DNA of 12,058 nt from NCBI RefSeq assembly GCF_006345805.1, contig NW_021827706.1, positions 1-12,058 on the forward strand, read 5' to 3'. Position 1 is the first letter of the stretch. Each line of letters opens with the position of its first letter. This DNA is from Octopus sinensis (Eukaryota). The translations under genes were made by a program, and so were the position numbers. The notes under the pieces are model-generated. The model did not search any database, had not been told where the DNA came from, and saw only the letters and a list, made by a program, of their open reading frames with translations. Shown here piece by piece: positions 3,585 through 12,058 of the stretch.

Positions 3585-3710
3585 AATTGGCACCCTTATA
3601 GTGGTGTAGTAATTATAATTTCTCTTATAAAAATAACATTTGTTGTTATTGTAATTGTTTTATTTTCCCAAACAGGATCTAATTGTCCTCAAGCCACTGT
3701 AGCTGCAGCA

Positions 3711-4072
3711 GTGGAGGCGCAATGGCCCAATGGTTAGGGCAGCGGATTCGCGGTCGGAGGATCGCGGTTTCGATTCCCAGACCGGGCGTTGTGTGTGTTT
3801 ATTGAGCGAAAACACCTAAGCTCCACGAGGCTCCGGCAGGGGGGGGGGTGACGAACCCTGTTGTACTCTTTCGCTACAACTTTCTCTCACTCTTTCTTCC
3901 TGTTTCTTGTCCTCCCCGACTTCCTACGCAACCGCTGAGCCTGGATGCGCATTCATCCATCCGTCGATGCTCTCGTGTCGGGGGTTGACCTGCTTTCTCT
4001 TCTGCGGGTCTTACGATAGCAAAGGACCAACGTTTCGACTTCTCCCACTGGACGAAGACGCTACGCTCAACA
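3711..4072 (+). mobile_element. tRNA-derived SINE (family C, OR-like), full length with 12-bp TSD
   Basis: Head GTGGAGGCGCAATGGCCCAATGGTTAGGGC (A box), GGTTTCGATTCCC (B box). TSD GTAGCTGCAGCA at 3699-3710 and GTAGCTTCAGCA at 4073-4084. Confidence 0.88.
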
Positions 4073-4475
4073 GTAGCTTCAGCAAACCAGCATTTTATTT
4101 CTTTCATTGATTTCAAACTTTTCTTTATATTTTCCTGAATACTGAAATTCATCAACTTGTTTGGGCATGTTGTTTCAAATGAATTCGTTACTTTATTTTT
4201 TGTTATTTTACTAATTACCGTTATTTTGATAATTTCCTGCACATTTCTATTCTATACTTTCTTGCGGTTGTTTCAAACCGTGTTTGTTACGACTGTTTTC
4301 TTAACTAAAATTAATTGGTTAATTTTCACTGTGATTTGAAGAAGGTTATTGAATTGGAGAATAAGATGGGAAAGCATTTCAAAGGAAATGTGTTCTGTGG
4401 AAGGAAGAATTCACAGAAGTGTTTAGGTCGCACAAACAAAAATTAAATCCACGGAAACTAGTAATAATATACTGA

Positions 4476-4683
4476 TTTCAATTTTGGCTCGAGGCCAGCA
4501 ATTTCAGGGGAGGAGTAAGTCGATTAAATCAACTCCAGTACAGAACTGGTACTTGTTTTATCGACTCCAAAAAGGTGAAAGGCAAATTCGACCTCAGTGG
4601 AATTTGAACTCAGAACATAGAGACGGACGAAATGCTGCTAAGTATTTTTCCCAGGTTGCGAACGATTTTACCGGTTTACCGCC
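4476..4683 (-). mobile_element. Diverged family A SINE with an alternative 3' tail
   Basis: Reverse complement carries the GGCGG head, GAGTTCAAATTCC B box and GCCTTTCA..GTCGATAAA..GTACCAG core seen at 1336-1934. Confidence 0.8.
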
Positions 4684-4730
4684 TTGAAGAAAAGGATAAA
4701 GCCTTTCTTGAGTCACATAGACCCGGTTTC

Positions 4731-4834
4731 CGGGTCTATAGTAGGAGACACTTGCCCAAGGTGCCACGCAGCGTGATTGAACCCAGAACTGGGTTGTTGG
4801 GAAGCAAGCTTCTTACCACAGCCACGCCTGCACC
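4731..4834 (-). mobile_element. 5' part of a tRNA-derived SINE (family D, OK-like)
   Basis: Reverse complement reads GGTGCAGGCGTGGCTGTGGTAAG (A box), GGGTTCAATC (B box), CCTTGGGCAAGTGTC (CORE-like); 3'-truncated. Confidence 0.75.
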
Positions 4835-4963
4835 TATATATATACACACATACATATATAGATAAATAGAGAGACAGAAAGACAGATAGATAGACAGATA
4901 CAGATGTACATATATCGTGTGATATATGTGTTTTAAGCATGCAATATATATATAAAATAATAT

Positions 4964-5010
<47 letters not shown>

Positions 5011-5150
5011 GCACGTGTGTGTTTATATATATTACATATAATACATAGCACATAATACATATATTACATATATATATGTGTGTGTGTGTGTGTGTATTTA
5101 TATTTATATATTACATATGTATATTACATGTAATGCACCACACACACACA
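4835..5150. repeat. Compound (TA)n/(GATA)n/(TG)n/(CA)n microsatellite
   Basis: Directly visible. Confidence 0.85.
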
Positions 5151-5757
5151 AGGGTTTGTGTTTATGTGTATGTATATGTAAGATACATGTAATGTAGTTA
5201 GACCACAGTTTTTTTTTTTTTTGTGACTCATACGCCGTACAACGTAAACAGACATAAACATAATTCTGTTATGCTCTTCGTTCTGCATCAGATTTATCCA
5301 TTCTAACTACATTAAATTCATCTTCGCTTGTCTTATGTACGCTTGTCTTTCTGTTCCGCATAAAATGTTTATAGAATAATGGCTCACACAGTACTGAAGA
5401 AAGAGGAAGGAAGAGAAAAACAGATAGGGACAGAATGACAAACGGATGAAGCGACGTATATGCCTGCAGTCCGACAGAGACTCAGAATTCACTTGTGTCA
5501 CATTGCTGACTATAATGTCAGTGCATTTCCTCCGGGACCTTCCTTTCCCTTCGGTAAAACTTTAGGGTAAAGAATAAAGTATTTATTTTTGCCATCTGCC
5601 AGTTAGAATATTCTAAGCAGATAAAACAAGCAGAGAAATTGCAGATCTCGAACCATCCACGCCGGTGTGTTTGACTAACCTACGTGCAATCAGTTTGATC
5701 GATCTGGACTTATCTCGGGTGATTATTGCAAACATCACAACAACAACAACAACAACC

Positions 5758-6118
5758 GTGGAGGCGCAATGGCCCAGTGGTTAGGGCAGCGGACTCGCGG
5801 TCGTAAGAACGCGGTTTCGATTCCCAGACCGGGTATTGTGAGGTTTATCGAGCAACACATAAGCTCCACGAGGCTCCGGCAGGGGGTGGGGGTGACGAAC
5901 CCTGTTGTACTCTTTCGCTACAACTTTCTCTCACTCTGTCTTCCTGTTTCTTGTCTCCGACTTCCTACGCAACCGCTGAGCCTGGATGCGCATTCATCCA
6001 TCCGTCGATGCTCTCGGTGTCGGGGGTTGACCTGCTTTCTCTTCTGCGAGTCTTACGAATAGCAAAGGACCACGTTTCGGACTTCTCCCACTCTGGGACG
6101 AAGACGCTACGCTCAACA
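5758..6118 (+). mobile_element. Chimeric family C SINE at the duplication junction
   Basis: 5' flank and head match the copy at 8045; body, tail and 3' TSD (GTAGCTGCAGCA, 6119-6130) match the copy at 3711. Confidence 0.88.
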
Positions 6119-6520
6119 GTAGCTGCAGCAAACCAGCATTTTATTTCTTTCATTGATTTCAAACTTTTCTTTATATTTTCCTGAATTCTGAAATTCATCA
6201 ACTTGTTTGGGCATGTTGTTTCAAATGAATTCGTTACTTTATTTTTTGATTTTTACTAATTACCATTATTTTGACAGTTACCTGTACATTTCTTTTCTAT
6301 ACTTTCTTGCGGTTGTTTCAAACCGTGTTTGTTACGACTGTTTTCTTAACTAAAATTAATTGGTTAATTTTCACTGTGATTTGAAGAAGGTTATTGAATT
6401 GGAGAATAAGATGGGAAAGCATTTCAAAGGAAATGTGTTCTGTGGAAGGAAGAATTCACAGAAGTGTTTAGGTCGCACAAACAAAAATTAAATCCACGGA
6501 AACAAGTAATAATATACTGA

Positions 6521-6727
6521 TTTCAATTTTGGCTCGAGGCCAGCAATTTCAGTGGAGGAATAAGTCGATTAAATGAACCCATTTCAGAACTGGTACTTAT
6601 TTTATCGACTCCAAAAAGGTGAAAGGCAAATTCGATCTGAGTGGAATTTGAACTCAGAACGTAGAGACGGAAGAAATGCTGCTAAGTATTTTTCCCATTG
6701 TGCTAACGATTTTACCGGTTTACCGCC
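6521..6727 (-). mobile_element. Diverged family A SINE (duplicate of 4476-4683)
   Basis: Same motifs at the paralogous position. Confidence 0.8.
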
Positions 6728-6790
6728 TTGAAGAAAAGGATAAAGTCCTTCTTGAGTCTCATAGACTCATAGAACCGGTTCCTCGGTTTC

Positions 6791-6894
6791 CGGGTCTATA
6801 GTAGGAGACACTTACCCAAGGTGCCACGCTGCGCGATTGAACCCAGAACCGTGTTGTTGGGAAGCAAGCTTCTTACCACAGCCCCGCCTGCACC
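6791..6894 (-). mobile_element. 5' part of family D SINE (duplicate of 4731-4834)
   Basis: Same motifs at the paralogous position. Confidence 0.75.
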
Positions 6895-7452
<558 letters not shown>

Positions 7453-8044
7453 AAGAGTTCGTGTTTATGTGTATGTATATGTAAGATACATGTAATGTAG
7501 TTAGACCACAGTTTTTTTTGTGACTCATACGCCGTGCAACGTAAACAGACATAAACATAATTCTGTTATGCTCTTCGTTCTACATCAGATTTACCCATTC
7601 TAACTACATTAAAATTTATCTTTGATTGTCTTATCTACGCTTTCTGTTCCGCATAAAATGTTTATAGAATAATGGCTCACACAGTACTGAAGAAAGAGAA
7701 AGGAAGAGAAAAACAGATAGGGACAGAATGACAAACGGATGAAGCGACGTATATGCCTGCAGTCCGACAGAGATTCAGAATTCACTTGTGTCACATTGCT
7801 GACTATAATGTCAGTGCATTCCTTCCAGGACCTTCCTTCCCCTTCAGTAAAACTTTAGGGTAAAGAATAAAGTATTTATTTTTGCCATCTGCCAGTTAGA
7901 ATATTCTAAGCAGATAAAACAAGCAGAGAAATTGCAGATTTCGAACCATCGACGCCGGTGTGTTTGACAAACCTACGTGCAATGAGTTTGATCGACCTGG
8001 ACTTATCTCGGGCAACATCATCATCAACAACAACAACAACAACC

Positions 8045-8235
8045 GTGGAGGCGCAATGGCCCAGTGGTTAGGGCAGCGGACTCGCGGTCGTAAGAACGCG
8101 GTTTCGATTCCCAGACCGGGTATTGTGAGTGTTTATCGAGCAAAAACACATAAGCTCCACGAGGCTCCGGCGGAGGGTGGAGTGGTGCACCCCGCTGTAC
8201 TCTTTCACCACAACTTTCTCTCACTCTTTCTTCCT
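8045..8235 (+). mobile_element. Family C SINE, 3'-truncated
   Basis: Same head with A and B boxes, following an (AAC)n tract; similarity to the other copies ends after CTCTTTCTTCCT. Confidence 0.85.
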
Positions 8236-8525
8236 ACTTCTGCCACAAAGCAGAGGAACCATGGTGTAACCCACTATGGTATGGTAAACTTTCAGACCCC
8301 AGTCTAGATTGCGAATCCTCTGTACCCCATTATGGTTCAGCTCTCCATCCGTTAAAAGCCACCGTTTACGAAATAAGGATAACAACGTAGCTTTCGCGCC
8401 CGTGCAACCGCCAGTCTATCGCGTGTGGTGGGTAGATCTTCAAGTTGCCATGCGCATTCTTAGTGGTTTAGAGTAGACTCGAATTAGAGATTATTCTTTG
8501 TGGCTAATGGCGTGAGTTCTGATTG

Positions 8526-9143: not shown

Positions 9144-9391
9144 TACATTATTTACATTTGACGGATATTTGTGCTCATCTTGTTTGTTAACACAACGTTT
9201 CGGCTGGTATACCCTCCAGCCTTCATCAGGTGTCTTAGGGAAATTTCGAACCTGGTTTCTCATTCCTAAAGTATTTTTCGATGTTATATTATTGTTGTTG
9301 TTGTTGTTGTTGTTGTTAAGGCCACTTCTTGGAATCGAACTCGGAATCTTGGGGTTAGTAGCCCGCGCTCTTAACCACTAAGCCATATGCC
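9144..9391 (-). mobile_element. tRNA-headed short element carrying a hammerhead ribozyme (candidate SINE/retrozyme)
   Basis: A box TGGCTTAGTGG (9385-9375), B box GTTCGATTCC (9340-9331), (AAC)n spacer (9317-9292), then a hammerhead at 9234-9189. Confidence 0.75.
9189..9234 (-). ncRNA. Minimal type I hammerhead ribozyme
   Basis: 5'-GACAC CUGAUGA A GGCUGG agggUaUa CCAGCC GAAA CG UU^ GUGUU-3'. Both conserved core boxes present, perfect 6-bp stem II, 5-bp stem I (one G-U), loopless palindromic stem III (AACGUU), GUU cleavage triplet. Confidence 0.82.
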
Positions 9392-9443: not shown

Positions 9444-9629
9444 TAGGAGAAGAATTCTCAAAAAAAAAAGACGAAGACAGGTAGTGTAGACAACAAACAG
9501 ATGTATTAGTATAACGCTCGGGAATTGAAAAAGTCTTCAACGTTTCGAGCCTACGCTCTTCCACAAAAAGGAACACAGAAAGAAACAAGGAGAGAAAATA
9601 AAGAATGTGTAGTGGCTAGCAATCTATCA
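9444..9629 (-). mobile_element. Short microsatellite-embedded element with a degenerate hammerhead (Penelope-like terminal-repeat relic?)
   Basis: ~185-bp block between (TA)n and (CA)n tracts containing CTTT TTGTGGA A GAGC gtag GCTC GAAA CG TT GAAG (9570-9535). Confidence 0.5.
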
Positions 9630-11661: not shown

Positions 11662-11796
11662 CAACAGCACACTACAAACAACTCACACACGCTCAACATC
11701 TGTGGGTTTCAAACCTTTTCTTTTATCTATCAACAGTTTTCTTTTCCTGATATTCGCTCGAGGTCTTCTTGCTGCGATTCAACAAATTTAAATACC

Positions 11797-12016
11797 TATT
11801 TCTTTATTACCCACAAGGGGCTAAACATAGAGGGGACAAACAAGGACAGACATAGATATTAAGTCGATTACATCGACTTCAGTGCGTAACTGGTACTTAA
11901 TTTATCGACCCCGAAAGGATGAAAGGCAAAGTCGACCTCGGCGGAATTTAAGGTCGACTTTGCCTTTCATCCTTTCGGAGTCGATAAATTAAGTACCAAT
12001 TACGCACTGGAGTCGA
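11797..12016 (-). mobile_element. 5'-truncated family A SINE with a fold-back inverted duplication
   Basis: Minus-strand body 11797-11950 followed at once by a plus-strand partial copy 11951-12016; AAATACC occurs on both flanks (11790-11796, 12016-12022). Confidence 0.88.
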
Positions 12017-12058
12017 AATACCCCACATGAAAAATATTGCTGCCGTCATGATGATAGT

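Follow-up and report, generated by a model that had tools for sequence, protein, structure and literature searches.

A solo pseudo-LTR of a Penelope/Poseidon-type element in Octopus sinensis joins a tRNA-like head to a minimal hammerhead

The window analysed here is a 12,058-nt stretch of Octopus sinensis DNA (contig NW_021827706.1, our G000:C4177, of the 2.72-Gb assembly that was also used for the copy searches); toward its end, the minus strand carries a repeat composed of a transfer RNA (tRNA)-like head, a trinucleotide spacer, a linker, a minimal hammerhead ribozyme motif, and a conserved tail. A preliminary description, made from the letters of the window, had taken this repeat for an independent short interspersed element (SINE) that captured a Penelope-type tail. 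With high confidence we identify it instead as a solo pseudo-long terminal repeat (pLTR) of a Penelope/Poseidon-type element, because the head and the tail jointly form the pLTR of an autonomous Penelope-like element (PLE) in the same genome. As to how the solo copy arose, we consider it probable, though well short of certain, that RNA polymerase III (Pol III) started at the head and that the element's own reverse transcriptase (RT) primed internally, downstream of an uncleaved hammerhead.

The parent element

Directly 5′ of the head, three loci have common sequence, which provided a route to the parent element. A probe from the 184 nt upstream of the head gave 2282 first-look candidates; in all 29 other loci fetched these 184 nt continue into the head and/or the tail, and coding sequence for an RT and a GIY-YIG nuclease lies upstream of the head in these loci. 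A near full-length but broken copy, L231 (G000:C1:206745000-206753000), is made up, in order, of an inverted tail, a 5′ pLTR piece, a 2.3-kb open reading frame (ORF) region, and a 3′ pLTR. Its RT piece matches Pfam RVT_1; for the GIY-YIG domain, in copies that are broken, the identification comes from its motif and from an alignment with a PLE nuclease that is itself Pfam-positive, and Pfam gave no match on the 186-amino acid GIY-YIG piece. RT and C-terminal GIY-YIG form a single ORF that ends about 30 nt ahead of the head, so that the element reads ORF stop, ~30 nt, head, (AAT)n, ATG, hammerhead, tail. An autonomous Penelope element sharing the tail, for which the preliminary description proposed a search, is thereby identified within the same genome.

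The other end of the ORF leads back to the same repeat. A search with the ORF start of L231 gave 344 candidates, and in 25 of the 30 loci fetched the tail runs directly into the N-terminus of the ORF (four of the 25 resemble one insertion, and two are the arms of one palindrome). Eight translated ORF-linked copies start at an ATG in the linker, and the ribozyme therefore lies in coding sequence. Direct and inverted pLTRs contain the ORF start, and the head is kept in seven 5′ pLTRs among the 25 loci, four of them following an ORF end (partial tandem) and three of them head-started. Neptune and Nematis have a Cys-rich linker that joins RT to nuclease; such a linker is absent from L231 and three relatives and present in L067 and L284. 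Its absence indicates a Penelope/Poseidon architecture, and on this architecture we place the element among the endonuclease-bearing (EN+) PLEs of the Penelope/Poseidon clade. A protein search found seven relatives in other assemblies (P0001-P0007), 56-68% identical to the C-terminal part of the element. Of the features that define a tRNA SINE, the repeat has a tRNA-derived head with A and B boxes but no lineage separate from its autonomous partner: the whole unit, head included, belongs to the ORF-bearing element.

Two further searches for a partner turned up other hammerhead-bearing PLEs. One went via Pfam GIY-YIG (30 of 150 scored loci fetched, 28 compared) and the other via a second PLE family (25 of 151 fetched); the elements from both bear no likeness to the tail.

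Family size and insertion structure

The exact 34-mer of the ribozyme has 1551 matches in the genome (0 for the reversed control) and occurs in 4 of 92 unselected pieces, which gives a rough total of 10^4 to 10^5 pieces. Reads or contigs matching the tail come from two organism codes, B and F, and a metagenome scan gave only two weak loci. The ~250-nt unit first proposed coincides with a complete family unit, and head and tail do co-occur genome-wide as expected, in roughly 10^4 copies: the tail lies downstream in 26 of 29 head matches, the head lies upstream on the same strand in 22 of 29 tail matches and 15 of 29 position-ordered ribozyme matches, and tail or ribozyme copies without a head are mostly 5′-truncated. 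(The counts of linkage and tandems, 5′ ends, fold-backs, and two-ended insertions exclude the locus of the window itself and two duplicate loci, L031 and L114.)

Insertion bears the marks of Penelope-like machinery, a point on which the preliminary description was right. Specifically, i) an inverted family piece lies upstream in 58 of 87 loci and downstream in 0 of 87; ii) a family-free test found an inverted upstream partner in 13 of 30 ribozyme loci, compared with 0 of 30 loci of another tRNA-headed family; iii) 3′ ends are bimodal, ~50-60 and ~84 nt beyond the predicted cut, and the long end with its ~30-nt tail is confined to one side in 42 of 45 two-ended insertions (P 4e-10); and iv) shared 8-13-nt flanks, read as target duplications, accompany 27 of 45 insertions as against 20 of 1980 mismatched pairs. 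Inverted copies, a tail at one end, and short duplications are PLE hallmarks in PMC8557442 and PMC3846280 (here and below, papers are cited for those portions of their text that were available).

Copies extend 50-85 nt beyond the predicted cut, and self-cleavage therefore does not set the copied 3′ end: of 142 tail pieces, 1 has its end no more than 5 nt from the cut, and among 29 position-ordered copies there is none that stops at the cut, so that cleavage as the determinant of the 3′ end, as originally suggested, fails for the copied RNA. In Anolis PAc the RT primes internally on uncleaved RNA, ~85-90 nt beyond the cut, and the tail is explained by the RT having two places, both internal and downstream of the hammerhead, at which it can start (PMC11167929). 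We infer that the putative ribozyme is not required to define the template RNA. A retrozyme-like cycle, in which cleavage would set the RNA ends, circles would form, and multimers would be inserted, might seem to suit a minimal hammerhead that is intact in the family majority sequence, the more so as animal retrozymes derive from pLTRs (bioRxiv 2026.07.22.740005); but with a direct tandem in 1 of 87 loci, 3′ ends that avoid the cut, and no pile-up of read ends in three RNA runs (weak evidence where short RNAs are concerned), such a cycle is very improbable indeed, and the retrozyme-like nature first entertained for the repeat is not supported.

The hammerhead

On the minus strand of the window, helix I pairs 9234-9230 with 9193-9189 (5 bp); the core CUGAUGA at 9229-9223 is followed by a single unpaired A and a 6-bp helix II; GAAACGUU occupies 9201-9194, with the predicted cut at 9194^9193; and a palindromic AACGUU replaces helix III. 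A strict minimal-hammerhead descriptor has one match in the window and none in 300 dinucleotide resamples. The hammerhead of the preliminary description was not recovered by Rfam, a search of the window giving neither a hammerhead nor a tRNA match, and folding gives weak z-scores, the ribozyme scoring -1.6 and the head +0.6. Minimal hammerheads of metazoan PLEs have a short helix I, a long helix II, a palindrome in place of helix III, and a single unpaired base ahead of a G-C pair; a single motif stays uncleaved, and multimers cleave at a low level (PMC4209133). By analogy, and given the AACGUU palindrome, the family ribozyme would need to dimerise, or to be assisted by protein, in order to cut.

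No selection on the ribozyme is seen among genomic copies, the core being changed at 6.7% compared with 5.1-7.6% elsewhere; all 11 core bases are kept in 29 of 63 unselected pieces. Copies diverge by 5-8% from the family majority, and such divergence without extra conservation of the core fits dead insertions derived from masters whose core was intact.

Five-prime ends at the head, and the missing TTTT

Both boxes are intact in 56 of 103 copies of the head, which may resemble tRNA-Arg; ARAGORN found nothing in the window and, at a relaxed score, reported 6 of the 103 copies, mostly with anticodon ACT. Copies pile up at the start of this head. A 19-base probe just upstream of the head has 889 matches whereas 19 specified bases at the head start have 4312; across these 31 nt the loss is 79%, against the 9% predicted from truncation within the ORF region (an expectation taken from 28 copies with a mean of 339 nt, L201 and L220 left out). 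The head begins between -9 and +2 in 54 of 60 copies, many of them from a head-selected set, with peaks at +1 and at -6/-7, and the remaining 6 extend upstream; of the 17 pieces at position-ordered loci, 11 have their end in the interval from -18 to +3. In ORF-linked copies, a set selected on the upstream part, the head probe is kept in 11 of 24 and the upstream probe in 22 of 30.

The sense strand of the parent element is also poor in potential Pol III terminators. L231 has 25 TTT runs and no TTTT in 2630 nt, whereas a Neptune-type ORF of equal T content has nine TTTT runs; the absence has a P of 0.001 (geometric) or 0.013 (Fisher, two families). The aligned copies, 45,155 nt in all, hold 15 scattered TTTT runs against 89 expected, and no bin has a run common to more than two copies.

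These observations suggest the following course of events. Within a 5′ pLTR, Pol III would start some 1-7 nt ahead of the head and would read on into the ORF without meeting a terminator. Priming by the RT at the tail of the first pLTR would then yield a solo pLTR such as the window copy, priming at the second pLTR would yield ORF-containing copies, and fold-back of the cDNA or template switching at its 5′ end would yield the head-to-head inverted copy. A bolder version, which we put forward tentatively and with some doubt, is that Pol III from a captured tRNA promoter makes the full 2.6-kb template of the autonomous element, that the ORF has been selected against TTTT, and that thousands of SINE-like solo pLTRs are shed by internal priming, so that a single unit would combine a Penelope element with a "SINE" of its own.

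Weighing a Pol III start against other origins

Several points weigh against a Pol III start. The 5′ ends are scattered over -9 to +2 rather than fixed at a single base, and a hairpin spanning about -14 to +10 overlaps the head start; palindromes begin the pLTRs of other, rotifer Penelope elements, which lack a Pol III promoter (PMC3846280). Three 5′ pLTR copies that start at the head were examined; they reach just 339-861 nt into the ORF, and no head-started full-length copy was found among those examined. As for TTTT, a third PLE family has just two runs in 1770 nt, P is just 0.065 under a codon-preserving null, and since the copies are not independent, the gap amounts to one observation on one family. 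Described PLE promoters, in the available accounts, are RNA polymerase II (Pol II)-like, that of Drosophila Penelope being internal and LINE-like. Translation of an uncapped Pol III RNA lacks an explanation, and Pol II read-through may be the source of protein.

Transcript data leave the matter where it was. Three RNA-seq runs of one study (organism B) contain 5412-7365 tail reads each, equally in both directions, of which 54-56% continue into unlike sequence; no pile-up of read ends appears in these runs, a weak negative for short RNAs, and the head is masked as a repeat. The pattern is one of passive read-through and is uninformative on Pol III. One locus shows a separate pattern: at L110:1806-1904, 9-27% of reads in runs X22-X24 are changed at each of 13 sites (A>G or T>C), compared with 0-4% of G000 copies. 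ADAR editing of head-to-head hairpins would give such changes; the indication is weak, since several C>T and G>A sites are also raised and the runs come from another organism code.

The main rival to the Pol III reading is hairpin-driven truncation of Pol II RNA: solo pLTR templates would be Pol II or read-through RNAs, the hairpin would stop the RT or trigger fold-back, and the head would be a passenger, either an old tRNA retrocopy or a simple SINE inserted in the 3′ untranslated region. The hairpin itself, the rotifer palindromes, and the Pol II-like promoters just mentioned all agree with this, as do perfect fold-back junctions, which are common (16 of 72 strand entries). We nevertheless regard truncation as unlikely, because the fold-back junctions retain just ~6-7 nt upstream of the head rather than a full hairpin arm, as if the template ended there, because many ends at the head start lack a fold-back, and because the absence of TTTT is left unexplained.

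An independent SINE lineage, in which Pol III transcribes the solo copies themselves and a Penelope RT acting in trans recopies them, comes nearest to the preliminary description once its cleavage step is removed. Head-started copies outnumber ORF-linked copies by about 4:1, and the many heads with both boxes kept would also agree with such a lineage. Yet two variants (core T/A, and one or two AAC after the cut) each occur in solo and in ORF-linked copies, so that no solo-only subfamily is seen, in what is a small test with two variants; and PAc requires ORF sequence ~55 nt past the priming site (PMC11167929), an equivalent of which solo copies would lack if the two elements are alike. Such a lineage therefore appears improbable, and a Pol III start in the pLTR of the autonomous element itself, plausible and backed by more than the preliminary description could offer, remains the account that we favour.

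Features of the window

Features of the window copy are listed in Table 1. The A and B boxes, the (AAC)n, the hammerhead, and the lack of TTTT from the head to 9144 are present as first described; the minus strand does not reach a TTTT until 8599, which is 792 nt beyond the start of the head. The copy ends at the short 3′ end of the family, without the optional ~30-nt tail, and has no inverted partner here.

Table 1. Coordinates of the pLTR and its parts in the window
Feature	Position	Strand	Basis
Solo pLTR, Penelope/Poseidon-type	9144..9391	minus	matches 3′ pLTR of ORF-bearing copies
tRNA-like head within pLTR, predicted Pol III type 2 promoter	9320..9391	minus	A and B boxes at tRNA spacing
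A box	9375..9385	minus	sequence
B box	9332..9340	minus	sequence
(AAC)n/(AAT)n spacer, length differs greatly among copies	9291..9317	minus	(AAC)8 at 9317-9294
Start codon (ATG) of the element's ORF, as seen in ORF-linked copies	9261..9263	minus	translations of 8 ORF-linked copies and window copy
First 40 codons of the ORF	9263-9144	minus	translation of window copy
Minimal type I hammerhead	9189..9234	minus	sequence; structural features as in PMC4209133
Family-conserved sequence beyond the cut, as far as the short 3′ end, where the RT is predicted to start internally	9144..9188	minus	bimodal 3′ ends; analogy with PAc (PMC11167929)

The window holds other repeats too. A second, unrelated minimal-hammerhead repeat at 9452-9625 on the minus strand has U at core position 6 and the same GAAACGUU; it has 2358 first-look candidates, ends in (TA)n, shows no inverted partners in 25 loci, and shares ~780 nt of upstream sequence between two loci, and is likely the pLTR of another PLE family. 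Three copies of the tRNA-headed family that served as control in the inversion test (inverted upstream partner 0/30; 5316 exact matches to a 35-base probe) lie on the plus strand at 3713-3900, 5758-5950, and 8046-8240. Three tandem 184-nt copies of an abundant repeat at 1383-1938 are of the same family as an inverted pair at 11790-12042. A ~2.1-2.3-kb segment, at about 3600-5700 and 5700-8000, is apparently tandem-duplicated at 96-98% identity, by local duplication or as an assembly artefact. Elsewhere in the genome, further PLE families are numerous (L061-L090, L176-L200, and L284); among them are Neptune-type ORFs of 780 amino acids without a stop, with U3-A8 minimal hammerheads 400-850 nt past the ORF stop.

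Significance and comparison with known systems

Reviews treat autonomous retrotransposons as Pol II-transcribed and assign Pol III promoters only to elements that are short and non-autonomous (PMC10886601). If a Penelope pLTR does contain a Pol III promoter, this division would be overturned; such a promoter would also show one route for the origin of a SINE-like family, give the template RNA a known starting point, and allow open questions of PLE replication (template ends, the role of the hammerhead, the origin of inverted copies and of tails at one end only) to be tested on thousands of dated copies. In repeat libraries, the solo copies are probably classed as tRNA SINEs or tRNA pseudogenes.

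Octopus tRNA SINEs (OK/OR1/OR2 and Twhinn) are likewise tRNA-headed, high-copy repeats. The octopus repeat literature, in the portions available, yielded no link to a hammerhead or to Penelope, and a literature search found no description of a PLE with a tRNA-derived promoter or of a cephalopod hammerhead repeat. The family itself may already be named, Dfam, Repbase, and the repeat library of PMC13282606 lying outside the comparison; what appears undescribed in the literature searched is the tRNA-like promoter arrangement inside a pLTR.

The closest systems are the Penelope/Poseidon PLEs (Anolis PAc, PMC11167929; Adineta Pen2a, PMC3846280; D. virilis Penelope), which, in the accounts available, share with the octopus element a single RT and GIY-YIG ORF that begins within the pLTR, a minimal hammerhead overlapping the first codons, an adjoining 5′ inverted copy, and an optional ~30-bp tail at one end (30-40 bp as a clade criterion); target duplications are also similar, 8-13 bp here and 9-10 bp in Pen2 (PMC3846280). 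Unlike these elements, the octopus pLTR has a tRNA-like head with A and B boxes, most octopus copies begin at that head, and the sense strand is without TTTT.

Schistosoma SMalpha SINE-like retroposons carry Pol III boxes. They resemble the octopus family in being short dispersed repeats with a type I hammerhead, but differ in that their ribozyme is canonical and tested and that no ORF-bearing parent is described in the available part of the source (PMC8490949). Non-LTR retrozymes are likewise pLTR-derived with a type I hammerhead, but are defined by direct tandem units (bioRxiv 2026.07.22.740005), whereas the octopus family is dispersed with inverted partners. The TRIMp3 elements Cassandra, Helenus, and Ajax have a small-RNA-derived Pol III promoter in a terminal repeat, as the octopus element appears to have, and their autonomous partners are argued to need Pol II (PMC10886601); they are, however, non-autonomous LTR elements of 0.3-1.3 kb, whereas the octopus repeat belongs to the ORF-bearing element itself.
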